Translations under genes and position numbers: made by a program | In this document: positions 27,118-41,485 of the stretch, piece after piece | Layout of the letters: every line of letters begins with the position of its first letter | Position numbering within the stretch: the stretch's first letter is position 1 | Notes under the pieces: generated by a model | Databases searched by the model: none | Told to the model about the DNA's origin: nothing | The model's input: only the letters and a program-made list of their open reading frames with translations | NCBI GenBank assembly: GCA_965219455.1 | Contig: OZ244744.1 | Coordinates: forward strand, 1,440,001-1,504,000 | Direction of reading: 5' to 3' | Source of the DNA: Candidatus Latescibacterota bacterium | GTDB taxonomy: Bacteria > Latescibacterota > UBA2968 > GCA-2709665 | Length of the DNA stretch: 64,000 nt

Positions 27118-28989
27118 ATGCGATTTCATTGGCGGTTGATGTTGATTTGTGTGGCGGTTGTCGCAATGGCCATGGCGGCCGTACATTTGTATTTGACCCA
27201 TACGATTCGGGATATCCTGCTGGCGCAACGCCGGGATACGCTCACGCAGGAGGTCCGGACGGCCGTCGCCCAATTTGCAGGCCAATGGGCGGAAGCCGCG
27301 GCTTCCGGTACCGTGAATGAGATCGTGAACCGGATCGGGCGGCGGTTGGACGTTCGTGCGACGGTTATTGACGGCGACGGGAAGGTGCTGTGGGATTCGG
27401 AGGTTCGGGTGGAGGATCTTGCACGGCTGGCGAATCAGGCAGACCGCCCGGAGGTCCGGTCCGCGTGGGAAGGCTCGGTTGGCCGACACCTGCGTTCCGG
27501 CGAATCGACGGAACGGGAAATGCAGTTTGTGGCCAAGACCATTCCAGGGCTGCGTGACGGGCGCGTGGTGATGCGGCTGGGCGCACCGCTGAATCACGTG
27601 GGACAACTCGAGGATCGCGTCAGTCGCGCGATGTGGGCGGCATCCGCGCTGGGGTTGGCCCTGGCTCTGCTGCTGTCCTACAACGTCTCGCAATATATCT
27701 CGCGTCCCATAGAAAAACTGACGCGCGTTGCGCGTTCGGTGGCCGCGGGTAACTTCGATGAGGAGGTGCCGTCCGTTGCTTCTTCCCGGGAATTTAGGGA
27801 TCTGGCAAGGGCTCTGGATTCAACGCGGCAGCAGGTCCGGGACCGGATTTCGGATATTGTCGGGGAAAAGTCCAGGCTGGAGACGATCCTGTCGGACATT
27901 ACCGTGGGCATCCTTGTCACGGGGCGCGACGGCCGCGTTCTGCTTACCAATCACACCTTCGAGCAGTTCTTCGGCGTGATGCCGCCCACGGAAGGCCGGC
28001 CGCCGGTGGAAATGATCCGTGACGTGCAGGTCCAGGAGGCAATCGAACACACCCTGAGAACCGGCGAAGCCCGAACGCAGGCAATGACAACGTCCGGTCT
28101 GCCCGAGCGCCATTTCGACGTGCACGTGGGACCCATTCGCCGGAAGGGCGCGGGAATGGGTGTGGTGGCGGTCTTCTACGATACGACCGAATTGCACCGG
28201 CTGGAGCGCGCGCGCAAGGATTTTGTGGCCAATGTATCCCACGAAATACGAACGCCGCTCACGGCCATCAAGGGGTGCGCGGATACGCTGGCCGAGGGCG
28301 CGCTTGACGACCGTGCAACCGCCGAGCGGTTCGTGCAAACCATACTCGCGCATTCAGACCGGCTCCAACTGCTGCTGGAAGATCTGCTCGATCTTTCGCG
28401 GCTGCAGTCCGACAGGCTGGCGATTGAAAAGGAAGACTTCTCAATCCGAAGGGTGGTGGACCGGGCGTACGATTCAATCCGGCAGCAGGCCGAAGACAAA
28501 GGTATTGCGGTTGCGGTTACGGTTCAGGATGAACTGACGGTCCGGGGCGACCCGAAGTTGATTGAGCAGGCCGTGGTCAACCTGCTCGACAATGCCGTGA
28601 AATATACACCGCAAAGCGGGCAGGTGCGGGTGGCTGCCAGACGGCTGGGTACGGATGAGGTATTCGCGGGAGAGGATGCGGAGAACACGCCGCGGTTTGT
28701 ACTGGCGGCGGATGCGGGCTATCCGGATGAGGATTCAAGACCGGTCGCGTCGGGCGAAAGCGTGGCCCTGGAAGTCGTGGATACCGGTATCGGGATCGCT
28801 TCGGATTCGCTGCCGCGGGTGTTCGAACGGTTTTACAGGGTGGACAAGGGACGCTCCAGGAGCCTGGGCGGAACCGGTCTGGGGCTTTCGATTGTCCGGC
28901 ACATCATCGAGGCCCACGGAGAACGGGTATACGTAAAGAGCGTACTCGGCGCCGGGGCGACGTTCGGCTTCACCCTACCGATCGCATAG
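27118..28989 (+). CDS. phoR: Phosphate regulon sensor histidine kinase (TM-HAMP-PAS-HisKA-HATPase)
   Basis: RKDFVANVSHEIRTPLT, NLLDNAVKYT, DTGIGI, FERFYRVDKGRSR..GGTGLGLSIV. Confidence 0.88.
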   Translation: MRFHWRLMLICVAVVAMAMAAVHLYLTHTIRDILLAQRRDTLTQEVRTAVAQFAGQWAEAAASGTVNEIVNRIGRRLDVRATVIDGDGKVLWDSEVRVEDLARLANQADRPEVRSAWEGSVGRHLRSGESTEREMQFVAKTIPGLRDGRVVMRLGAPLNHVGQLEDRVSRAMWAASALGLALALLLSYNVSQYISRPIEKLTRVARSVAAGNFDEEVPSVASSREFRDLARALDSTRQQVRDRISDIVGEKSRLETILSDITVGILVTGRDGRVLLTNHTFEQFFGVMPPTEGRPPVEMIRDVQVQEAIEHTLRTGEARTQAMTTSGLPERHFDVHVGPIRRKGAGMGVVAVFYDTTELHRLERARKDFVANVSHEIRTPLTAIKGCADTLAEGALDDRATAERFVQTILAHSDRLQLLLEDLLDLSRLQSDRLAIEKEDFSIRRVVDRAYDSIRQQAEDKGIAVAVTVQDELTVRGDPKLIEQAVVNLLDNAVKYTPQSGQVRVAARRLGTDEVFAGEDAENTPRFVLAADAGYPDEDSRPVASGESVALEVVDTGIGIASDSLPRVFERFYRVDKGRSRSLGGTGLGLSIVRHIIEAHGERVYVKSVLGAGATFGFTLPIA

Positions 28990-29064: not shown

Positions 29065-31176
29065 TCAATCGGGTGGAGGGAACGGGCCGTTGGCCGCGAA
29101 AAAATCCGGAACGTCGAATTGCTCTCCCCTGGCCAGCCCCATCAGGATCTCCTGTGACGAAATGGCAGTCCGTCCGTTCGAAGCCTCTACACCGCGATGG
29201 TCGCCGTCCGGAAGAAGCTCACGTGCCTTGATATTGTCCGCCATGCACGGAGAGAGAATCCGGGACTGGATTCTTCGGATAAGCACCGGGTCTTCAATGG
29301 GACAGAGGATTTCCACGCGTCGGCGGAGATTGCGGGGCATCCAGTCCGCGCTGCCGGTGTAAATCTCTGGCTTGGATCCGTTTTCGAACATGTAGATGCG
29401 GCTGTGCTCAAGGTAACGCCCGACGATGCTTCTCACGCGGATGCGATCGCTGACTCCGGGAATGCCCGGACGGATAGAGCAGATCCCGCGGACGATCAGG
29501 TCGACCTCCACGCCGCTTTGAGACGCTCTGTAGAGCGCTTTCACGACCTTTACATCCTGAAGCGAGTTCATTTTGCAGACAATACGGGCAGGTCGCCCGG
29601 CCCTGGCGTGTTCAATCTCCCGATCGATTTTCGCCAGAATGGAGTCCATCATATTGAAGGGCGCAACCAGCAGCTTCTTGACCTCGGGATGGTCGGACTG
29701 GGTGGTGAGCAGGTTGAACACCTCGGCCACGTCGCTGGTAATGTCTTCCCGGGCGGTCATCAGACCCAGGTCCGTATACACCCGCGCCGTCGTTGCATTG
29801 TAGTTTCCGGTACCAATGTGGGCGTAGCGGCGGAGGCCGCCGGCTTCGCGCCGGACCAGCATGGAGAGCTTGCAATGGGTCTTTAAGCCAACGACGCCAT
29901 AGGCGACGTACACGCCCGCATCCTGGAGTTGCCGCGCCCATCGGATGTTGGAGGCCTCGTCGAATCGGGCTTTGAGTTCCACAATCACGGTAACCTCTTT
30001 GCCCGCCTCCGCGGCTTTCAGCAGAGCATCCATGATGGGAGAGTCTTCGGTTGTGCGATACAGCGTCTGTTTAATGGCCAGTACGTCAGGGTCCCGCGCG
30101 GCTGACTGGACAAACTGGATGACCGGCTGGAAAGAGTCGTATGGATGATGCAACAGGATGTCCCGCTGGCGGATTTCGGCGAATAGCTGGTCGAGGTCTT
30201 CGGTGAAGGGGTACTCGGCCGGATGGTACGGCGCGTCCTTCAGGTCCGGACGCCGCGTCGCCCCGTAGAGCATCATCAGGCGATTGAGATTGACCGGACC
30301 GTTCACCCGGTAAACCTGTTTCTCACTCAGATGATAAATCGCCCGAAGCCGCCGTTCGATCTGCTTCGGCGCCGCCGCGTCGATTTCCAGCCGGACGGTA
30401 TCGCCCTTGCGCCTGCGTTTGAGTTCGTCCTCAATAGCCAGTAGCAGGTCGTCGGCTTCTTCTTCATCGAGGTAGAGGTCGCTGTTACGCGTGATACGAA
30501 AAGCGGCGGTACCCAGGATCTCGTACCCCCTGTACAGCTCCGGGATGTGCGCCCGCACAAGGTCGGCCAGAAATACGTAATCGACGCGCCGGCCCTCGTC
30601 TTCCCTGGGCAAGCGGATGAGACGCGGCAACAGGCGCGGAACCGTAACCACGCCGAATAAGGTGTCACCCCTACTGTCCTTGAGCAAAACGGCCAGGCAA
30701 AGCGACTTGTTAACCACGCGCGGAATGGGATGGGCCGGGTTGACGGTAAGGGGCGTCAGAACCGGATGGAGTTCCCGCAGCCAGTAGTCCCGGATAAATT
30801 CCTGTTCGGCGGGTTCGAGGTCTTGCGACGAACGGATATGCACCTCGGCCTTTTTCAGTGCGGGCAATAGCTCTTCGTTCCAGCAGGCATATTGTTCGTG
30901 GACCATGCGGTGGGTTTCAACGGAAACGGCTTCGAACACTTCTTCGGGCAACAGCCCGTCGGGGCCGGCATCGTGTACGCCGGCTTCCATCTGCTGAAGC
31001 AATCCTGCGACGCGGATTTCGAAGAACTCGTCCAGGTTGTTGGCGACGATCGCCAGGAATTTCACGCGCTCCAGCAGAGGATTATTCGGGTCCCGGGCTT
31101 CTTCGAGGACGCGTTCGTTAAAGCGAAGCCAGGAGATTTCCCTGTTGGTATAGAGCTTTGGATCGTCCAGGTTCAT
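29065..31176 (-). CDS. ppk1: Polyphosphate kinase 1
   Basis: NREISWLRFNERVL, NLDEFFEIRVAGL, ILLHHPYDSF, IKQTLYRT, ELKARFDE, GLKTHCK, GTGNYN, GSADWMPRNL; start could lie upstream (ORF open to 31308). Confidence 0.95.
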   Translation of the reverse strand: MNLDDPKLYTNREISWLRFNERVLEEARDPNNPLLERVKFLAIVANNLDEFFEIRVAGLLQQMEAGVHDAGPDGLLPEEVFEAVSVETHRMVHEQYACWNEELLPALKKAEVHIRSSQDLEPAEQEFIRDYWLRELHPVLTPLTVNPAHPIPRVVNKSLCLAVLLKDSRGDTLFGVVTVPRLLPRLIRLPREDEGRRVDYVFLADLVRAHIPELYRGYEILGTAAFRITRNSDLYLDEEEADDLLLAIEDELKRRRKGDTVRLEIDAAAPKQIERRLRAIYHLSEKQVYRVNGPVNLNRLMMLYGATRRPDLKDAPYHPAEYPFTEDLDQLFAEIRQRDILLHHPYDSFQPVIQFVQSAARDPDVLAIKQTLYRTTEDSPIMDALLKAAEAGKEVTVIVELKARFDEASNIRWARQLQDAGVYVAYGVVGLKTHCKLSMLVRREAGGLRRYAHIGTGNYNATTARVYTDLGLMTAREDITSDVAEVFNLLTTQSDHPEVKKLLVAPFNMMDSILAKIDREIEHARAGRPARIVCKMNSLQDVKVVKALYRASQSGVEVDLIVRGICSIRPGIPGVSDRIRVRSIVGRYLEHSRIYMFENGSKPEIYTGSADWMPRNLRRRVEILCPIEDPVLIRRIQSRILSPCMADNIKARELLPDGDHRGVEASNGRTAISSQEILMGLARGEQFDVPDFFAANGPFPPPD

Positions 31177-31314
31177 GCCGGGTTTCTCGTGGGTGACCGG
31201 AGCCATTGGTAATTGCATTTGGCTCAAGATAAACCGACACAAAGCATGAGTCAATCGGAATCGCGCTTGCAAGTCTTTATGGCGCGGGGGTTTGATGGAC
31301 TGCGTCATCGCCTG

Positions 31315-32064
31315 TCAACGTCTCGAAGCCATGGCCCTCAGTTCCTCCCAAAGATCCTGATACGCGTTTGCCGCAGGCGAACCCGGCGCGAAGCATGGCA
31401 CCGGCTTTCGGTGGATACCCATTTTTTCGACTTCCGACGCGTATGGAATCTGCGTCTCCAGAAACCGGTCTTCCCGATCTCTGCCGGTTGCCAGGTATTC
31501 GCTGTGCATGCGTTTCCGTTGCTCGACCATCGTGAAAAACGGGTGGATCCGGGAGACATCCAGGCGTCTGGAATGACAGAACCGCAGCAACTGATCGTAG
31601 GCACGCATGGACAACGTGGTCGGGATACACGGTACCAGGACGATGTCAGAGGCGAAAAGCATATTTTCAGACACCTGGCCGATGCCGGGCGGACAGTCGA
31701 TAAAAATGAAGTCGTACGTCTTGCTATACGGCGCCAGAATGCGATGGAGCCGCTTCGAGGAGCCTTTCAGTTTGCTCAGAATCGTGTCCAGGTTTCTGAA
31801 CGACAGGTTTGACGGCAGCAGATCCAGGTTTTCGTAGTCGGTACCTCTGATGCGCTTCTCTAGTCTTCGGCCACCGCGGAGGAACTTTCGACCCGGGAGT
31901 TTCCTGGAGGGATTGATGCGAAAATAGAACGCGGCCGATCCCTGAGGGTCCAGATCGAACAGAATGGTCCGCGCGCCCGCGCGCGCGGCGAGGTAGGCCA
32001 GATTTACCGCCGTGGCTGTCTTTCCCACCCCGCCTTTGATGTTGTACAGAGCGACTGTTGCCAT
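31315..32064 (-). CDS. ParA/MinD-family ATPase
   Basis: Deviant Walker A KGGVGKT, DLDPQGS, IDCPP; no parB nearby. Confidence 0.9.
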   Translation of the reverse strand: MATVALYNIKGGVGKTATAVNLAYLAARAGARTILFDLDPQGSAAFYFRINPSRKLPGRKFLRGGRRLEKRIRGTDYENLDLLPSNLSFRNLDTILSKLKGSSKRLHRILAPYSKTYDFIFIDCPPGIGQVSENMLFASDIVLVPCIPTTLSMRAYDQLLRFCHSRRLDVSRIHPFFTMVEQRKRMHSEYLATGRDREDRFLETQIPYASEVEKMGIHRKPVPCFAPGSPAANAYQDLWEELRAMASRR

Positions 32065-32082
32065 AGAATACGCTCTAAATGG

Positions 32083-33612
32083 TCAGACGAACAGACGTCG
32101 GAACGTGGCGGCGACGTCCGCCTGGTTGAATTGCACAAAAGACTCTGAAAAAGCCGCCCGGACGGTCTGCTGCTCGCGGTAAAGGCAGCCGATCAGACCG
32201 CCGATAGCGGCGAAGGTTTCCGGGTGAGTCCCCTCCGCCGGAAACGCTTCCAGGTACGTCTTGAGGTCGGCATGTTGAACGCAGAGGTCGTTGAAGTCGC
32301 CCAGGTTGTCCTGCAGGCTTTTCAGGTGCCCGACGATCAGCAGGATCTCTTCCGCGGGGAAAAGCGACGAAAAAAACTCCAGGAGGTAGCGCAGTTTCTT
32401 GCACTCAATCCGAAGGCGGTGCAGGCCGGCGTCGGGCGTGGACTCATCGATTGCGGTTCCCAATTCGATCACGCGACCGTATCTCTTTCCGATGAACCTT
32501 TTCGCAAGCCCAGCCGCCGGCACATCGGCGTTGTCGGGCGATTCGGACTCCGGCGGGCATGCCAGAAACGCCTCCCAGTCGGCGGCTATTTTCAGGTACA
32601 TGCCGCCATCCAGGGCGGCGGATAGACGCCGGTGTTCACCCGTACGTTCGTCCCGCAGGGATTCGAAGAGAGAGTCCAGTCGTGGCCGTAGATATCCCGG
32701 CAGGAGAAGGCGGTACGCGTCCTGCTTGAGCAAGGCGACGTCCAGGTCGCGCAGGCGGTTGGTGCGTTTGCCCAGAAAGGAAAAGTCCTTCCGGAAGCGG
32801 GCGACACGGGCTTCCGGAAAAACGGATTTGATCTGGCCGAGCGCCGACCGTGTACGCCGGATTCCCACCCTGAAATCGTGCAGAAACTCGGTATCGATGT
32901 CCTCCTTTATCCCCGCTTCATTGCGTCTTATGGTTCGGAACAGATGCCCCAGAATGCGCCTCGCGGCCTCTGCGCCGGTCAGGTCGGGTTCCAGCGCGAT
33001 ATTGAGTTTGGAGGTATAGTCTCCCGGTTTCCTGCCGGTCGTCCGTATAGCGGCGTGGAACAGGTCTTCTGTTTGGGGTTCGGCGCCCGCTTCGCGCAGG
33101 GACCGGTTCAGTCTGCGCAGATGTTTCTCATACCCTCGGACGGGCCGCAGAATGAGCGTGTTGAAAGGTTGATCGGAATCCGCCACCCTGGCCTGTTCGA
33201 GCGTTGCGATCAGGACGGTCTTTTCATTCCTGTTGAGGACGCGCATGGTCTGCCGGCGGGTCCTGGCGCGCGCGCGCGGTAACAGCGCCCGTACGCTCAA
33301 ATGTGCTTGCAGGGTCTTCTTCAACGGACCCTCGGGAAAATCCGCGCCGAATACCGGTTCGGTTCCGCGCGGCAGGCTGAGCGATGCGACGGTTTCACGG
33401 TTTGGCAGGCTGTAGAGAAGGTAGCGATCCTGTTCTTTCAACAGTACCAGGTTCCTGTTGAAGAGGCGCCAGTCGAAGGTGTCGAGAAAGGTCTGGACAT
33501 GCTCTGTATCGCCTATCAGTTTGCAGGTATGGGAACTGGCGGCCTCCTCCCATACGCTGTGTGAATCGACCGATGCCGGCAGGCGCAGTGCACGTACTTT
33601 GTTTTTCATCAT
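32083..33612 (-). CDS. CHAD-domain polyphosphate-binding protein with N-terminal CYTH-like region
   Basis: FLDTFDWRL N-terminal motif; CHAD motifs LHDFRVGIRRTRS, RLRDLDV, LHRLRIECKKLRY, LQDNLGDFND. Confidence 0.88.
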   Translation of the reverse strand: MMKNKVRALRLPASVDSHSVWEEAASSHTCKLIGDTEHVQTFLDTFDWRLFNRNLVLLKEQDRYLLYSLPNRETVASLSLPRGTEPVFGADFPEGPLKKTLQAHLSVRALLPRARARTRRQTMRVLNRNEKTVLIATLEQARVADSDQPFNTLILRPVRGYEKHLRRLNRSLREAGAEPQTEDLFHAAIRTTGRKPGDYTSKLNIALEPDLTGAEAARRILGHLFRTIRRNEAGIKEDIDTEFLHDFRVGIRRTRSALGQIKSVFPEARVARFRKDFSFLGKRTNRLRDLDVALLKQDAYRLLLPGYLRPRLDSLFESLRDERTGEHRRLSAALDGGMYLKIAADWEAFLACPPESESPDNADVPAAGLAKRFIGKRYGRVIELGTAIDESTPDAGLHRLRIECKKLRYLLEFFSSLFPAEEILLIVGHLKSLQDNLGDFNDLCVQHADLKTYLEAFPAEGTHPETFAAIGGLIGCLYREQQTVRAAFSESFVQFNQADVAATFRRLFV

Positions 33613-34027
33613 ATGACTTCCGTCAGAGTCCGCCGGGGATATGCGCCGCGGACCTCCTCGTCTGCCCGGACGGACGCGATGTCCGCAGCCTGAAGCTGGA
33701 GTACAGGCCCTATAAAAAGAAGGCCGATGCCCAGAGACATCAGCCTGTTTCGAGCTTCGCTGCGAGCATTTGGGTCAGTCGTCATAGCTCAGGAACTTGT
33801 ACCGGCCGACTCTCCGGATGACCGATCCGAGGATTCGCAGATCCACGTGCCTGCCTTTTTTGGTTTACACTTGCAACAGAGATTAAGATACTTTGCACGG
33901 ATTTTCTGGAGGCTGGTAAGTGCTTTGCGCCCACCTCGTAATGATACGTCGAATCGGTACAAAAAACAAGAAAGACCGAACAGGCGCTGAAGCATTGACG
34001 CTCCGGGCGAGCCTGTCCGGCCTCTGC

Positions 34028-34098
34028 GAAGCTGTTTTAAAATTTCTGTTGCGTTCCCGAGCGCGAGCGAAAGGGTGTCGGTTATGTGGCGAGACGGG
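34028..34098. mobile_element. Truncated copy of the MITE-like element
   Basis: GAAGCTGTTTTAAAATTTC...CCCGAGCGCGAGCGAAA...CGGTTATG matches one end of copies A and B. Confidence 0.65.
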
Positions 34099-34196
34099 AT
34101 GAACCGGCGCCTGTCTGCCTGCCTGCGTCCGCCGGACAGGCAGGCAGGCGGAAGAATGGCGCCATATTTCCGGGACAGGACACCATGCCAGGTATC

Positions 34197-34236
34197 GTAA
34201 CCTATTCGTCACACAATAGTGACCTGTTCGTCACAG
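34197..34236 (+). promoter_or_regulatory. Pho box, four direct-repeat half-sites at 11-bp period
   Basis: GTAACCT-ATTC-GTCACAC-AATA-GTGACCT-GTTC-GTCACAG upstream of the pst operon; matches PhoB GT(C/A)AY 11-bp periodicity. Confidence 0.8.
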
Positions 34237-34315: not shown

Positions 34316-34666
34316 ATGCTGTTTAAGTGGGCGATCCGGGGAAGCGTCGCGGTGTTGAGTTTTGGGGTTTTCGGCCCCGCCGAAGGCGCCGAAGGCAAGA
34401 TTGGAGGGCTGGCTTTCGGCGACTGCTATTTCGTCGCCACCGGAGCGAACAAGCATGAAAACGGTTTCAAATTCCGGCGGATATATATGACGTACGACCT
34501 GGAATGGAATGACCGCTGGTCCGGACGGGTGCGGTACGAAGCCAACGACTCGGGATTTGGCGTCGAGGACAAGATGCGGCGCCTGGAGCCCTCGCGCCAA
34601 AGTCGATCCCGGGATCGCCCGACCGGCGAAATTTCGACTCCCTCTCCTGCTGGCACACAAACGTAA
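34316..34666 (+). pseudogene. Probable truncated outer-membrane porin-like gene
   Basis: GGAGGAG RBS, signal peptide, then GFKFRRIYMTYD...GRVRYEAND beta-strand pattern, degenerating into low-complexity sequence after about 85 aa. Confidence 0.45.
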
Positions 34667-34735
34667 CGTTGGCGGTTTACATTGACCTCTGAATTTCTTC
34701 AGACAATCACCCTGAAAATCGAGAGGTGTAGACGG

Positions 34736-35713
34736 ATGATTCGAACAGTTGCCGGATTGATATTACTGATACTGGCCGCGGTTCCCGTTCGGTCGCAGAC
34801 GTTTGAGGTCGACCCGCGGATTCCGGCCTATAATAAGGCGCGGGGGATTTCAGGAAGCGCCAGCAGCATCGGATCGGATACGATGAATAACCTGATGGCG
34901 CTGTGGCTGGAGGGTTTTCGCAGATACTACCCGAACGTAAACGTGCAGATCGAAGGAAAGGGGTCCAGCACGGCGCCTCCGGCGCTGATCGAAGGCACGG
35001 CCCGGTTCGGTCCGATGTCCCGTTCAATGAAGGCAACGGAGGTTGACAAGTTCGAGAACGCGTTCGGGTACCCGCCCACGCCGCTGAGAACCGCTTTCGA
35101 TGCGCTGGCGGTTTTTGTGAATAAAGACAATCCTGCTAGAGGCTTGACGCTGGAACAGGTGGATGCGATTTTTTCCAAAACCCGCCGTGGTGGATTTCCT
35201 GAAAATATCGTCCGGTGGAGCCAGGTGGGATGGACGGGCGAGGCGGCAAGGGCGTTAATTAGTTTGTACGGTCGAAACTCGGCCTCAGGGACCTATGGCT
35301 TTTTCAAAAAAAACGCGCTGTTTAAGGGCGATTTCAAAGATGAAGTGAAGGAACAGCCGGGGTCGGCTTCGGTTGTACAGGGTGTAGCGGAAGACCGGTA
35401 CGGAATCGGATACAGTGGAATCGGATATAAGACGTCTGACGTGCGCGTGGTGCCGCTTGCGGAGAATCCGGAGGAAGGGTTCAGAGACGCCAGCATGGAT
35501 AATGTACTTGACGGCTCCTATCCGCTGGGCCGTTTTTTGTTCATCTACATCAACAAAACCCCGGGTAAGCCCCTTGACCCGATGGTGCGCGAATTCTGCA
35601 GGTATATTTTCTCGAAAGAGGGTCAGGAAATCGTAATCAAGGATGGATATATGCCTGTGCCCTACGAAGTCGTTGAAGAAGAACTGGCGAAGCTGGCAGC
35701 AGCGGGAATTTAG
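34736..35713 (+). CDS. pstS: Phosphate ABC transporter substrate-binding protein
   Basis: GSDTM, IEGKGSSTAPPAL, DALAVFVNKDNP, YGRNSASGTYGFF, YPLGRFLFIY. Confidence 0.93.
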   Translation: MIRTVAGLILLILAAVPVRSQTFEVDPRIPAYNKARGISGSASSIGSDTMNNLMALWLEGFRRYYPNVNVQIEGKGSSTAPPALIEGTARFGPMSRSMKATEVDKFENAFGYPPTPLRTAFDALAVFVNKDNPARGLTLEQVDAIFSKTRRGGFPENIVRWSQVGWTGEAARALISLYGRNSASGTYGFFKKNALFKGDFKDEVKEQPGSASVVQGVAEDRYGIGYSGIGYKTSDVRVVPLAENPEEGFRDASMDNVLDGSYPLGRFLFIYINKTPGKPLDPMVREFCRYIFSKEGQEIVIKDGYMPVPYEVVEEELAKLAAAGI

Positions 35714-35766
35714 TCTGCTGGCGAACCCCTCCTCATGTCCGGCGGGAGAAACTGCAAGGTTTGGCT

Positions 35767-38019
35767 ATGGCGCAACCGAAGAATACCGATCCAGGAAAAC
35801 CCCGGTCGCTTCCCGGCATCACGCCCGCGGCACGCACTATGGACCGTCTGGGCCGTTGGGTAATCGCCGTGGGCGGTGTGGGGGTGATCCTGGTGGTACT
35901 GGGCATTCTGGCTTTTGTGCTTCGCGAATCCTTTCCCCTTTTCCTGTCTCCCGCGCCGGCGGCGATTGTAAATAGCCACACGCTGCAAGGTAGCGACGGC
36001 CAGCGGGCGCTTGCGGCGGGCACCGATCGGTACCGCGATGTCGGATACGTCGTGCGACCGGAGGGAATCGATTTTATCCGATTGATCAATGGAGAAACGA
36101 TTCGCCGGGAACGTGGCGACGAATTTCGGGGCCGGCACGTGGTATCGGTCCATCCTTCGCTTACGGACGGGCACCTGAGTCTGGGAATGTCGGATGGCCG
36201 CATTGCTCTGGCGAAGGTGAATTTTCGGGTGGATTATCCGGACGGCAAGCGCAGGGTCACACCCGAGTTTCAGGTTCTGGATAACATGGCGCTGGACCGG
36301 GGAGGCGAACCCATCGCTCAGGTCGCATATGGTTCGGACGGGGCACGGCGCTCCACTGTGGCGGGGATCACTGCGTCCGGCCGGCTACTGGTGGCGGGCA
36401 GACAGAAAAAGAGGGGGCTGCTGGGCGCGGGTAAGCAGGAATCATTCGTTTACGAATTGACCGATGCGTTTGACTGCAGGCCAACGGCCGTGCTGGTTAA
36501 CGGGAACAGTCGTCAACTTCTGGCGGGGACGGACCGTGGAGAGGTGTATTTCTGGGACATATCCGACATCAAGACGCCTCCGACCCTCGTTCAGCGTTTT
36601 CGTGCTTCGGACCACGCGATTACAGCCCTTGCGTTTCTGCTTGGCGACGTATCGGTGGTCGTGGGTGACGCCCGTGGACACGTAAGTACGTGGTTTCCCG
36701 TGCGCGGACCACGCGGCAATGTCCGCGGGACGTTTCAAAAAATCCACGATTTTCGGCCACATCGCACGGCGGTGAACGCGATTTCCCCGTCTGCGCGTGA
36801 CAAACAGTTTTTGACCGGCAGCGTCGGTGGACACCTGATGTTGCACCACATGACGTCCGGCCAGACGTTTTTCGAACTGGCGGATGGATCGGAGGTGACC
36901 GATCTGACGTTCGCGCCCAAAGCAGACGGGTTCCTGAGCCTTCACGCCGACGGTCGTTTGAACCACTATGAGCTATCCAATCCGCATCCTGAAGTGACAC
37001 TGAAAACGCTGTTTGGCAAGGTGTGGTACGAAGGATACACCGAACCTGAGTTCGTCTGGCAGTCCACCGGCGGAACCGACGAATTCGAGCCCAAGATGAG
37101 CATCATTCCTCTAGCGTATGGCACCGCGAAAGGGACGTTTTATGCAATGTTTTTCGCTCTGCCGCTGGCGGTTCTCGCCGCCATCTACACGTCCGAGTTC
37201 GCTCACCCGCGCGTGCGCAACGTGGTGAAACCGACGGTGGAGTTGATGGCATCGCTGCCAAGCGTGATTCTAGGCTTTCTGGGCGGTCTATGGCTGGCGC
37301 CGTTGCTGGAACGCCAGGTGGTAGGCGTCTTGCTGCTGCTGCCAACGGTGGCTCTGACCGTTATCACGGCGTCCTGGGTCTGGTCCCGCCTGCCGGGGCG
37401 CGTGAAGAACCGGTTGCCGGGACCGGAAGCGTTCTACGTGGCGGTGTCCCTTCTGGGTATCTGGTTGGCGCTGGCGCTCGGGCCGTTGCTGGAGGGCGCA
37501 TTCTGGGGCGGTAATTTTCCGCGCTGGCTGGCGGATGCCGCCGGCACCCGCTACGACCAGAGGAATTGCCTGGTTGTGGGTTTCGCAATGGGTTTTGCGG
37601 TAATCCCGATCATCTATACGATTTGCGAAGACGCGCTCACAAGCGTACCGTCACACCTGAGGGCCGGATCCCTGGCGCTGGGCGCCACGCCGTGGCAGAC
37701 GGCCGTTCGCGTGGTGCTCCCCACCGCAAGCCCGGGCATTTTTTCGGCGACAATGATCGGATTCGGACGGGCGGTCGGCGAAACGATGATTGTCCTGATG
37801 GCCACCGGAAATACGCCCATTATGGACTGGAGTATCTTCAACGGGATGCGCACCCTGTCGGCCAATATTGCCGTGGAAATCCCCGAGGCGCCGCACGAGG
37901 GAACGCTCTACCGGGTCCTCTTTCTGACCGGTCTGCTACTTGCAGGAGTGACGTTCATCGTCAACACCCTGGCGGAAATCGTACGGCAGCGGCTTCGGGA
38001 GCGGTACAGCCGAATATAG
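35767..38019 (+). CDS. pstC: Phosphate ABC transporter permease PstC, long form with WD40-like periplasmic domain
   Basis: WQSTGGTDEFEPK, VKPTVELMASLPSVILG, SLALGATPWQT, GRAVGETMIVLMATGN. Confidence 0.92.
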   Translation: MAQPKNTDPGKPRSLPGITPAARTMDRLGRWVIAVGGVGVILVVLGILAFVLRESFPLFLSPAPAAIVNSHTLQGSDGQRALAAGTDRYRDVGYVVRPEGIDFIRLINGETIRRERGDEFRGRHVVSVHPSLTDGHLSLGMSDGRIALAKVNFRVDYPDGKRRVTPEFQVLDNMALDRGGEPIAQVAYGSDGARRSTVAGITASGRLLVAGRQKKRGLLGAGKQESFVYELTDAFDCRPTAVLVNGNSRQLLAGTDRGEVYFWDISDIKTPPTLVQRFRASDHAITALAFLLGDVSVVVGDARGHVSTWFPVRGPRGNVRGTFQKIHDFRPHRTAVNAISPSARDKQFLTGSVGGHLMLHHMTSGQTFFELADGSEVTDLTFAPKADGFLSLHADGRLNHYELSNPHPEVTLKTLFGKVWYEGYTEPEFVWQSTGGTDEFEPKMSIIPLAYGTAKGTFYAMFFALPLAVLAAIYTSEFAHPRVRNVVKPTVELMASLPSVILGFLGGLWLAPLLERQVVGVLLLLPTVALTVITASWVWSRLPGRVKNRLPGPEAFYVAVSLLGIWLALALGPLLEGAFWGGNFPRWLADAAGTRYDQRNCLVVGFAMGFAVIPIIYTICEDALTSVPSHLRAGSLALGATPWQTAVRVVLPTASPGIFSATMIGFGRAVGETMIVLMATGNTPIMDWSIFNGMRTLSANIAVEIPEAPHEGTLYRVLFLTGLLLAGVTFIVNTLAEIVRQRLRERYSRI

Positions 38020-38043
38020 GCCGCTGAGTCGACCGGCTGGCAT

Positions 38044-38173
38044 CCTTCGACAGGCTCAGGAACCAGCGGTTGCGAACTGAGCCGCTCCCTGAGCTTGTCG
38101 AAGGGTCGGCGAAGGTCGTTGAAGATTGCTAAAGAGGTTAGGAAACGCGGGCATTTCGACAAGCTCAATGACC
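38044..38173. repeat. Palindromic REP-like element (CCTTCGACAGGCTCAGG / CCTGAGCTTGTCGAAGG)
   Basis: Inverted pair at 38044-38105 plus a third half-site TTCGACAAGCTCA at 38155; a 29-bp stretch is shared with 50961-50989. Confidence 0.75.
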
Positions 38174-38289
38174 ACGTTTCATCACGCTAGCCGTCTCGAA
38201 TCCCGTGGCAAGGAATGCAACGGAGACGACACGATGGATTCTTGTTTTAGTGCCCGGATTGCCCGCATCGTACGTCTGGAGCCAATCGA

Positions 38290-39894
38290 ATGAACGGGTT
38301 CTGGAAGTCAGGCCAGGCGTATATCTGGCTCACAGGCGGCGCGCTCGCTTTCTGCGTCCTGATGATCGTAGGGTTGATCGGCCTGGTGATCTACAACGGC
38401 CTGGGCTTTTTCTGGCCCGCAAACCTGACCGTGTTTCGTCTCCATGGTCACGGGGTTGCGATGGGTCAGGTCTGGAATCGGCAGGAGATTCCGAACCGGC
38501 AAGGGGAATACCGGGTTCAAGTGAAAGTGGCGAACCGGGACGCTTACGGCGCTGACTTCCAATGGATTGACGAGTCACGGATTCTGGATCGAACTTTGCC
38601 GGACAGCGCGGTGGTGTTTGAGCGGCGGGAATGGGGACATCTGTACGGTTTCCTGGATGCCGTGTTCGAAGGTGAAGGCAAAGTGGCCGGAAGTGGCCCG
38701 GCCGGCTGGACCGCGTTTCAAAAGCAAATGCGGCGAACCGGCGCGGTCCTGGAGAAGGTCCGCGACATTGAGCACAACGCCATTTCCGATCTGAACCGGC
38801 GGATCGAGCAGCTACGCCTGAAAAAACGAAAACTTGAACTGGCGGCTGACGCACGGCAGGCGGAGATTTTTCAACTGGACGAGACAAACCGCCAATATTG
38901 GACACGTTTTGAATCTCTGGCCGCCGAACTGAAACGCCTCAGGGAAGAGAGCGAAGTACCGCAACTCGAGGTCCGTCTGATCGGCGGGGAGGTGCGGCGG
39001 CTCGCGGTGGCGGACGTTGTGCGCGCGTATCGGCCCAACCGGCTGGGCGTCTTCGGCAAGACAGGCGTATACCTGGATCGGGCCTGGGAGTTCCTGTCTG
39101 CGGAACCCCGCGAGTCCAACACCGAAGGCGGTGTGTTTCCGGCGATCTTCGGTACGGTAATGATGGTTATTCTGATGAGTCTGGCGGCGGTGCCGTTCGG
39201 AATTCTGGCGGCGCTGTATCTGCGTGAATATGCCAGGCAGGGTCCGCTTGTGGGAGCGATCCGGATCGCGGTGAACAATCTCGCTGGAGTGCCCTCAATC
39301 GTCTTTGGCATGTTCGGACTCGGATTTTTCGTCTACGGCGTGGGCGGCAGCCTGGACCTTCTCTTTTTCCCGGAGGCGTTACCGGCGCCCACGTTTGGCA
39401 CCGGCGGCATTCTCTGGGCGTCGTTGACACTTGCGCTGTTGACGGTGCCCGTAATGATCGTGGCCTCGGAGGAGGCCCTGGCGTCTGTGCCCGGCGAGGT
39501 ACGCGAGGGGTCGCTAGCGCTGGGGGCCACACAGTTTCAGACCATCTGGCGAGTCGTTCTTCCCGCGGCGCTCCCTGGAATTCTCACGGGGATCGTGCTT
39601 GTGGTGGCCAGAGGCGCGGGCGAAGTGGCGCCGCTGATGATAACCGGTGTGGTCAAGCTTGCGCCCACGTTGCCCGTGGACGGCGCCTGGCCGTTTTTTC
39701 ACCTGGAGCGCAAGTTCATGCATCTGGGATTTCATATTTATGACGTGGGTTTCCAGTCTCCCAACGTGGAGGCGGCCCGCCCGATGGTATATACGACAAC
39801 TCTGTTGCTGATGTTCATCGTACTCGCATTGAACCTGACGGCGATACAGGTCCGGTCCCGTTTGCGGAAGCGTTACCAGAAAATCGGATTCTAG
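38290..39894 (+). CDS. pstA: Phosphate ABC transporter permease PstA
   Basis: PRESNTEGGVFPAIFGT, YLREYA, NNLAGVPSIVFG, REGSLALGATQFQT, ARGAGEVAPL. Confidence 0.93.
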   Translation: MNGFWKSGQAYIWLTGGALAFCVLMIVGLIGLVIYNGLGFFWPANLTVFRLHGHGVAMGQVWNRQEIPNRQGEYRVQVKVANRDAYGADFQWIDESRILDRTLPDSAVVFERREWGHLYGFLDAVFEGEGKVAGSGPAGWTAFQKQMRRTGAVLEKVRDIEHNAISDLNRRIEQLRLKKRKLELAADARQAEIFQLDETNRQYWTRFESLAAELKRLREESEVPQLEVRLIGGEVRRLAVADVVRAYRPNRLGVFGKTGVYLDRAWEFLSAEPRESNTEGGVFPAIFGTVMMVILMSLAAVPFGILAALYLREYARQGPLVGAIRIAVNNLAGVPSIVFGMFGLGFFVYGVGGSLDLLFFPEALPAPTFGTGGILWASLTLALLTVPVMIVASEEALASVPGEVREGSLALGATQFQTIWRVVLPAALPGILTGIVLVVARGAGEVAPLMITGVVKLAPTLPVDGAWPFFHLERKFMHLGFHIYDVGFQSPNVEAARPMVYTTTLLLMFIVLALNLTAIQVRSRLRKRYQKIGF

Positions 39895-39978
39895 CGCCTT
39901 TTCGGCCGATAACAGGATCGCTGAAATACGACAATTCAATCGTCTTTGAGCGGCTTTTCCACTGAGGAGTCATACAGG

Positions 39979-40758
39979 ATGGGCGCGGAAACCGCGACGC
40001 CGGAACGTCCCGTAGTCGAAGTTGAAGCGTTGAGCCTGCATTACGGCGAAGCGCAGGCCCTGTACGATATCAGTCTGAACATACCTCGACACAACGTCAC
40101 CGCGTTTATCGGGCCGTCGGGTTGCGGGAAGTCGACACTGCTCCGATGTATGAACCGATTGAACGATTTGATCGACTCGGTGAGGATTCAAGGCGGGGTC
40201 CGGATCGAAGGCGAGGACATTTATGCCCACGGATATGATGTAATTTCACTCAGGCGGCTGGTGGGGATGGTGTTTCAGAATTCGAATCCCTTTCCCAAAT
40301 CGATCTTCGAAAACGTGGTGTACGGGTTACGGATTGCCGGGGAGAACCGGCGTGCCGTTCTGGATGGGGTGGCCGAGCGAAGCCTTCGGGCGGCGGCGCT
40401 TTGGGACGAGGTCAAGGATCGTCTTGAAGCGTCCGCGCTGGGACTCTCCGGTGGGCAGCAGCAGCGGCTCTGTATCGCACGGGCGATTGCGGTGGAACCT
40501 TCGGTGATTCTGATGGATGAGCCCTGTTCCGCTCTTGATCCGATTGCCACGGGTCATATTGAGGAGACGATCAATGAGTTGAAGAACCGGTATACCATTG
40601 CAATTGTTACCCACAATCTGCAGCAGGCTTCCCGAATATCGGACTGGACGGCTTTCTTTTATCTGGGAAAGCTGGTGGAGCATTCACGAACCGAGGAGAT
40701 GTTCACAAACCCGAGGTTGAAACAGACTGAGGATTACGTAACGGGCAGGTTTGGATAG
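39979..40758 (+). CDS. pstB: Phosphate ABC transporter ATP-binding protein
   Basis: [55 protein letters not shown]. Confidence 0.95.
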
Positions 40759-40807
40759 GCGGAACACCGCGCCGCCGATGTGCGGATTTTATCGAATGGG
40801 ATAAAGA

Positions 40808-41485
40808 ATGGAACGGACATTGGATCAACGGTTGGAACATCTGAAAAGCGAGTTGCTGAAGATGGGTGGGGCGGTGGAGGAATCCATCGCCCAGGCCGTG
40901 AAGTGTCTGGTGGACCGGGACAACGATCTGGCAGGAACCGTGATTTCCGGCGGGAAAACAATCGACGAGTGGGAAGTAAATATCGAGGACGAGTGTCTGA
41001 AGCTGCTGGCGGTGAGCCAACCGGTGGCCGGCGATTTGCGCTTGATCGCAACCGTGTTGAAGATCAACTACGACCTGGAACGGATCAACGATCAGGCGGT
41101 GAATATCGCGGAGCGGGCGCTTGTTTTGAACCGGGCCTCCCTGTTGAAGCCGCTTATCGATATCCCCAGAATGGCGGAACTCGCCCGGGGCATGGTCAAG
41201 GACGCGCTGGACGCGATTGTAAACCGAAACGTGGACCTGGCAAACGACGTTCGCCGTCGCGATGACGTCGTGGATGCATTGAGGGATCAGATTTTCAGGG
41301 AGTTGCTCACGTACCTGCACTATCGGGCCGAGGCGGATGCGGTTGATCGTGCGATTCACCTGATTCTGGTCTCCCGTCATCTGGAACGGATGGGCGACCA
41401 TGCCTCCAATATCGCCGAGAATGTGGTGTACCTCGTGCAGGGACGGATCGTGCGCCACCAGAAGGAGAATATCGGGGAAGAGTAG
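40808..41485 (+). CDS. phoU: Phosphate signalling protein PhoU
   Basis: QPVAGDLR, DLERINDQAVNIA, RHLERMGDHASNIAE. Confidence 0.94.
   Translation: MERTLDQRLEHLKSELLKMGGAVEESIAQAVKCLVDRDNDLAGTVISGGKTIDEWEVNIEDECLKLLAVSQPVAGDLRLIATVLKINYDLERINDQAVNIAERALVLNRASLLKPLIDIPRMAELARGMVKDALDAIVNRNVDLANDVRRRDDVVDALRDQIFRELLTYLHYRAEADAVDRAIHLILVSRHLERMGDHASNIAENVVYLVQGRIVRHQKENIGEE

Follow-up and report, generated by a model that had tools for sequence, protein, structure and literature searches.

What does a ParA-type ATPase do when its gene lies between one for a CHAD protein and ppk1? The question is raised by a 64,000-nucleotide stretch of a Candidatus Latescibacterota genome (contig OZ244744.1, positions 1,440,001 to 1,504,000), here called the window and numbered from its first letter, for which a reading of the letters alone, the original prediction, had proposed that the CHAD protein is a cargo adaptor through which the ATPase spaces or segregates polyphosphate (polyP) granules. 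Our analysis shows that the CHAD-ParA pair is real and widespread as a two-gene module, through which a distinct ParA clade is tied to polyphosphate; positioning of granules is its most likely function. Coordinates and profile matches confirm the arrangement described at the outset, in which the CHAD, ATPase (after a gap of 18 nt) and ppk1 genes are co-oriented and divergent from a pst operon:

32083..33612, minus strand: two-domain phosin of 509 aa, with a PF05235 CHAD match at residues 220-448 (E 1.9e-57)
33043..33594, minus strand: putative pseudo-TTM N-terminal domain (CYTH/TTM fold) of this protein, about residues 7-190, from an AlphaFold2 (AF2) model with Foldseek and a residue table
32065..32082, minus strand: intergenic gap of exactly 18 nt between CHAD and parA
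31315..32064, minus strand: ParA/MinD-family ATPase of 249 aa (AAA_31, E 1.3e-35, 123 bits; YNIKGGVGKT)
29065..31176, minus strand: ppk1, polyphosphate kinase 1, of 703 aa from its likely start (TIGR03705)

A conserved CHAD-ParA pair linked to polyphosphate

The CHAD domain occupies about residues 200-508 of the 509-aa protein, which is of the long form. A phmmer search matched the protein to Chlorobium CHAD 6QV7/6QVA (E 5e-62), and Foldseek aligned the C-terminal domain of its AF2 model (predicted local distance difference test score 93.8) with Chlorobium tepidum CHAD (CtCHAD) at 41% identity and a root-mean-square deviation of 1.6 A. In CtCHAD, polyP threads a central pore, and mutating H253, R256, R260, R296 or R418/Y419 weakens binding (PMC6537752); the corresponding residues here are H245, R248, R252, R288, R408 and Y409, and these six central residues are 96-100% conserved in 79 paired sequences. 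By analogy with CtCHAD, the domain is predicted to bind polyP, and the polyP binding first ascribed to such domains is borne out, as a prediction, by the PF05235 match, the similarity to CtCHAD and the six pore residues. The window protein belongs to the same CHAD subtype as CtCHAD, which is 522 aa at full length. The published study covered the isolated CHAD domain only, and a term search of that paper (PMC6537752) found no mention of an ATPase or of gene neighbourhood; Chlorobium/Chlorobiales loci (L050, L028) carry the CHAD-ParA pair.

A gene-neighbourhood survey, which the original prediction had called for, found the ATPase tightly linked to CHAD elsewhere. Among 754 genomes the ATPase occurs in 130, as 131 copies, 110 of which lie directly downstream of CHAD, in a sample whose centre genomes were chosen for carrying the pair and whose related genomes are not independent (G142 is left out of these counts, G322 was not scored for CHAD, and the larger searches scored 9-18 candidates for each genome). 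In the window's own phylum, all 32 ATPase copies adjoin a long CHAD gene, and ten other CHAD genes there are without such an ATPase; copies next to CHAD were likewise found in Gammaproteobacteria (32/42), Bacteroidota including Chlorobia (40/49) and Desulfobacterota (6/8). Seen from the other gene, the ATPase is present in 108 of the 112 genomes with the long N+CHAD subtype. CHAD is present at 75 of the 80 best genome loci, where 74 distinct upstream pairs span ten named phyla, and metagenomes gave the pair at 63 of 80 loci, with 10 orphan ATPases and 7 loci too short to tell. The genes are also close to each other, overlapping in 61 of 140 pairs and lying at 20 nt or less in 122.

Linkage of all three genes, as originally proposed, stood only in part: the CHAD-ParA pair is the conserved core, whereas ppk1 is frequent but optional, being found at 38 of 80 loci, alongside a SixA-like phosphatase (31 loci), CYTH (24) and PPK2 (19). 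PPK1, PPK2, Nudix, CYTH, SixA-like, metallophosphoesterase, Na/Pi transporter or PhoU genes are held by 48 of 69 distant loci, and a bare pair with no polyP enzyme nearby occurs at some soil-type loci (L243, L259, L280, L301). The divergent pst operon beside the CHAD unit is mostly local to the source lineage. Paracoccus plasmids, from cultured hosts, carry CHAD-parA-CYTH-Nudix, in one instance beside pstB-phoU-phoB; a 62-aa hypothetical gene precedes CHAD in such plasmid operons (L230:3299-3487, L233:3288-3476). One locus (L061:2905-6753) holds two divergent copies of a unit of ParA and a CHAD-only protein (304 aa) as an inverted duplication, possibly an assembly artefact. Lysine-rich, histone-H1-like stretches that recall AlgP were seen in 15 loci of polyP clusters, mostly of Desulfobacterales (L014, L016, L018, L020, L029, L032, L039-L041, L046, L049, L052, L056, L075, L079), some of them as N-terminal tails of PPK2.

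In trees whose outgroup was ParA-family proteins from five further genomes and from the window's own, the CHAD-linked ATPases group together as a single clade, set off by a long stem and separate from the Soj of each genome (SH-aLRT 99 in a 94-row tree; 100/99 in a 27-row tree); the weak match L212 was left out of the careful tree. The distinct clade for which a ParA phylogeny had been suggested was thus recovered, with the window ATPase falling outside Soj (100/99); it is 29% identical to the Soj-type ParA of its own 5.84-Mb genome, whose parAB locus lies about 620 kb away. Two of the conditions named as refuting the original prediction, grouping with Soj and lack of linkage to CHAD elsewhere, did not hold. 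The window had been described as lacking parB or parS context, and so it does: a tblastn search of the genome with its own ParB gave a single match, next to the Soj-type parA at C1:850 kb, and none of the four matches to a parS consensus, scanned with up to 2 mismatches, falls inside the window. Matches of the ATPase in the ESM Atlas are to ParA clusters only, and its closest named relatives, in Ca. Latescibacterota/Gemmatimonadota metagenome-assembled genomes, are 82-91% identical. The ATPase match in a genome of the same genus (G091:C34:84523-85263) has two in-frame stops, possibly from a broken gene or an assembly error.

Surfaces of the two proteins

The ATPase keeps its catalytic apparatus, with K10, G11-T16, D37, D39 and D123 invariant in 79 sequences and the deviant Walker A motif, signature lysine, switch I and Walker B intact. 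Its richness in basic residues, remarked on in the original prediction, amounts to 39 K+R against 24 D+E (pI 9.9), and its net charge of +15 compares with a median of +10 for the clade and of -3 for Soj-like proteins. Non-specific DNA binding by nucleoid ParA involves R189 and R218 in B. subtilis (PMC3778016). We mapped the equivalents of these residues through an alignment to Soj-like proteins, and that of R189 is kept as R183 (88%), followed by K184. Other positions set the clade apart: EYYALEG of Soj becomes PTTLSxR in the CHAD-linked ATPases, and R49, R90, R154 and R219 are basic residues specific to the clade, R154 standing in place of a Soj glutamate. The C-terminal, membrane-targeting amphipathic helix of MinD/FlhG is without a counterpart in the window ATPase, whose chain ends WEELRAMASRR at residue 249 with no C-terminal extension able to hold one, and MinD profile models score it far below their cut-off.

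The N-terminal domain of the CHAD protein has no Pfam match, and Foldseek with the AF2 model matched it to TTM/CYTH enzymes. D44, R108, K131 and G160 are invariant (100% of 79 sequences), and a DTFDWR motif is kept. Active TTM enzymes carry a catalytic arginine and an acidic patch made up of one ExE on each of the first and last strands (PMC4641920, in excerpt). In the N-terminal domain of the window protein there is no ExExK, no catalytic LRxR and no terminal ExE, and TTM catalytic motifs are not conserved across the 79 sequences. From the modelled fold and these absences, the domain is best read as a pseudo-enzyme, of CYTH/TTM fold but without the catalytic residues.

Proposed granule positioning and competing explanations

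How might these two proteins act together? In the reading we prefer, at a probability of about 0.5, the CHAD protein would coat polyP granules, and the ParA-type ATPase would space them or hold them on the nucleoid in the manner of McdA. In its favour stand the linkage to CHAD, the polyP and phosphate genes in the neighbourhood, the separate clade, the conserved polyP residues, the kept R183 and basic character of the ATPase, its lack of a C-terminal extension, and the fusions of ParA with CYTH-like domains and with N-CHAD. ATP-bound ParA dimers would bind DNA through R183/K184 and the extra basic patches, and the partner on the granule would contact a basic surface of the dimer. This contact would be made by its pseudo-TTM domain, by the polyP chain or by both, in place of a basic peptide like that of ParB, and would trigger ATP hydrolysis and release, giving rise to a gradient that spaces the granules, limits their fusion or splits them between daughter cells. 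The fuller claim, that this is ATP-driven positioning of polyP granules by a new ParA/MinD clade with an anionic activator, polyP possibly being a third kind of matrix, we hold more tentatively.

McdA/McdB offers the nearest likeness to such a system, since there too a small orphan deviant-Walker-A ATPase gene lies beside a candidate cargo-binding gene, the partner gene is adjacent and co-inherited (here, in 110 of 131 copies), and what is carried is a body associated with the nucleoid. In H. neapolitanus, gene neighbourhood predicted the cargo for the five A/D ATPases tested (PMC10241942). The window ATPase differs in belonging to another clade, with McdA structures matching at E ~1e-9 only, and its partner is a globular TTM-CHAD protein without a conserved N-terminal activator peptide; the cargo would be an inorganic polymer. 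Because such an activator peptide is lacking, we class the pair as a variant among ParA/MinD cargo systems and not as a member of McdAB. With Soj/ParA of ParABS systems the ATPase shares the fold, the ATPase motifs and the R189 equivalent, and its best sequence matches in the PDB are to ParA/Soj, but it has no parB or parS, has lost the R218 equivalent and the acidic ParB pocket, and falls in a separate clade. AlgP of P. aeruginosa and PhaM/PhaF/PhaH also organise storage granules on the nucleoid; these are single DNA-binding proteins, unlike the two-gene pair, and their ATP dependence is listed as unknown (PMC13052382, in excerpt).

The same three gene types had already been seen adjacent in the folD-ppk-parA-CHAD cluster of Acidithiobacillus, which is prior art for the synteny (PMC6416229 and PMC10892726, in excerpt). 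In those excerpts, parA is labelled a chromosome/plasmid partition gene, neither studied nor linked to granules, and the CYTH domain is reported to keep its active-site residues, unlike the N-terminal domain in the window; we liken the two clusters by gene type only. The words polyphosphate, CHAD and granule are absent from the ParA/MinD review PMC11407121, and PMC10241942 lacks polyphosphate in its main text and CHAD, polyphosphate and ppk1 in its supplements. In the literature covered, we found no functional study of the CHAD-ParA pair and no deletion study in which its loss mispositions granules; an earlier mention may exist in subscription papers and in those of Iyer and Aravind (2002) or of Tumlirsch and Jendrossek (2017), which lie outside this coverage.

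The findings that weigh against granule positioning concern the protein surfaces, the exceptions to the linkage, some of the fusions and the precedents in other bacteria. The equivalent of Soj R218 is E211 in the window ATPase, and D or E in about 57% of CHAD-adjacent members, and because of this replacement nucleoid binding by the ATPase is in doubt. In M. xanthus ParA, an acidic pocket formed by Y81, E82, D110 and E117 binds the arginine of ParB (PMC12462528, in excerpt); these residues align to approximately R59, K60, S88 and I95 here, which are basic or neutral. The CHAD protein is unconserved at residues 5-12 and has no conserved N-terminal peptide of ParB/McdB type. Activation by a basic peptide that enters an acidic pocket is therefore inapplicable, and the partner of the ATPase is, to judge from these ATPase residues, likely to be anionic. 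Nor is the N-terminal domain required for pairing, since the ATPase is also found with a distant subtype made up of CHAD alone (L150, L153, L156, L061).

Exceptions to the linkage occur on both sides. Three gammaproteobacterial genomes and one Desulfobacterota genome have a long CHAD without a detected ATPase, and 10 of the 15 orphan-ATPase genomes examined, single-contig genomes among them, are without a PF05235 match, the orphan ATPases retaining their catalytic residues. In one Bacteroidota sub-clade (L067, L080, L206-L211) CHAD has been lost, and the ATPase gene is often upstream of an esterase gene. Mutual information between the two proteins, over 127 CHAD-ParA pairs (about 78 effective), gave noise only, and residues enriched in CHAD-linked over orphan ATPases failed independent-pair tests (median p at least 0.125 in the results listed), so that R49 (129/132 CHAD-linked vs 17/31 orphan), L159, F48 and D76 are leads only. 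Distance matrices of the two CHAD-protein domains correlate alike with that of the ATPase (0.76, 0.79), which reflects co-transfer. As to precedents, studies of granule spacing have so far shown no need for a ParA: S. elongatus has McdA as its sole ParA-family ATPase and spaces polyP without depending on it (PMC13556221, in excerpt), and granule spacing in P. aeruginosa is done by AlgP (PMC9239181, in excerpt).

Among 120 long homologues of the ATPase, 78 consist of ParA and a CYTH-like domain, with ExExK in 11 and the end of the profile reached in 35; we rejected these fusions as replacements for CHAD, L235-L237 still having CHAD upstream. Sixteen others are CHAD-then-ParA proteins, most of which we rejected as real fusions because they are probable frameshifts. 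One intact protein of 771 aa (P0218) has the reverse order, ParA-N-CHAD, which cannot be explained by an indel, since its domain order reverses the usual gene order; it is one sequence in two assemblies and thus a single event. In several clusters the ATPase is repeatedly found fused with a HAD phosphatase (PF05116) or with a solute-binding domain (PF00497), which fits a regulatory role; examples are P0002, P0181, P0193 and their kin, and P0214, P0215, P0253 and theirs.

The loss of the R218 equivalent, a charge of +15 and the clade-specific R49, R90, R154 and R219 are also what the main rival to granule positioning on the nucleoid would lead one to expect, namely that the ATPase itself binds polyP. 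The granule surface would then be the matrix, and the ATPase would sense ATP and switch the loading or unloading of CHAD, CYTH, Nudix or PPK proteins, thereby controlling granule size and turnover. Adjacency of ppk1 and parA without CHAD (L076, L157), an ATPase-bearing genome without CHAD (G301) and the fusions to CYTH and HAD domains agree with this, as does ppk1 in all five CHAD-less orphan genomes examined, though it is present in 8 of 14 control genomes as well. Two points argue the other way: almost every member retains R183/K184, like the ParAs that bind the nucleoid, and the tight coupling is specifically to CHAD rather than to the enzymes. We regard direct binding of polyP by the ATPase as unlikely, while ranking it ahead of the other rivals.

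Less probable still is a soluble regulatory module like FleN/FleQ, in which the ATPase would control PPK1, a CYTH enzyme or the Pho system and have no spatial role. PhoU, SixA-like phosphatases and CYTH enzymes among the neighbours would suit such a module, and in Acidithiobacillus the CYTH-CHAD gene has been interpreted as that of an adenylate cyclase by which polyP is linked to signalling (PMC6416229, in excerpt), but the bare pair occurs without a nearby enzyme, and a cyclase or phosphatase role is unlikely because the TTM domain of this subtype is without catalytic residues. Finally, the ATPase could position other cargo (DNA, the division site) with granules as a landmark, or be a hitch-hiker in phosphate clusters, as the persistence of orphan ATPases in unrelated neighbourhoods and the tracking of chromosome segregation by Caulobacter polyP granules (PMC13052382, in excerpt) might suggest, but overlapping or near-abutting genes in about ten phyla and the reverse-order fusion are hard to reconcile with hitch-hiking, and no parB, parS or division genes recur near the pair, which makes this the most improbable of the explanations.

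The surrounding locus and the wider meaning

Beyond the pair, the locus contains the following:

27118..28989, plus strand: gene for a PhoR-like sensor kinase, converging on ppk1
34197-34234, no strand assigned: four GT[ACG]AC units spaced 11 bp apart in a Pho-box-like array, nearer the porin/pst side
34316..41485, plus strand: short porin-like open reading frame (ORF), pstS, pstC, pstA, pstB and phoU, divergent from the CHAD unit

The product of ppk1 scores 925.7 bits with TIGR03705 against a cut-off of 465.85. Its ORF is open from 31308 (747 aa, from an upstream ATG), and the start is probably at 31176 (703 aa), because the ppk1 ORFs of four relatives (L005, L006, L008, L010), at 702-703 aa, begin at a matching distance, about 138 nt past the parA match; the parA-ppk1 spacing here would therefore be about 138 nt as well. 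The Pho-box-like array is the sole four-unit array of its pattern in the genome, and resembling arrays are visible in five of seven aligned relatives. By the 11-bp repeat rule it is a candidate PhoB site. The porin-like ORF is about 80 nt away from it and the start of CHAD about 580 nt, so Pho control of the CHAD unit is no more than a possibility. A scan for promoters and terminators gave no excess over the level in shuffled sequence, and four sponge-metagenome RNA runs, all of one study, gave short contigs of low depth only, which cannot show expression or co-transcription.

Between CHAD and the pst genes, an element of about 160 bp (34028-34190) has some 20-29 matches in the genome and looks like a small interspersed repeat; loose ends are seen in the reads at this element and also near 38019-38060. 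The porin-like ORF before pstS (34316-34666, 116 aa) has a weak Porin_O_P match and may be truncated, because in two relatives (L001, L002) the distance from CHAD to pstS is longer by 350-880 bases. Upstream of CHAD, a stretch that contains a hairpin (33710-33790) is common to L001 and L012 and absent from the other aligned relatives.

Reviews of 2025-2026 describe the proteins that position polyP granules as unknown in most bacteria, and list as unknown, too, whether positioning consumes ATP (PMC13052382, PMC13556221, in excerpt), and the mechanism of positioning is left open (PMC13052382, PMC11894788, in excerpt). The present analysis names candidate genes, CHAD and ParA, together with candidate residues (K15, D39, R183/K184, R49 and R154 in the ATPase; D44-W48, R108 and K131 in the CHAD protein), and the cultured hosts of the Paracoccus plasmids allow the question of granule positioning to be examined directly. 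If the pair does position granules, the ParA/MinD family would gain a new class of cargo and CHAD phosins a function beyond binding, and the finding would matter for how green sulfur bacteria, cable bacteria (L048) and bacteria of sponges or sediments store phosphate.

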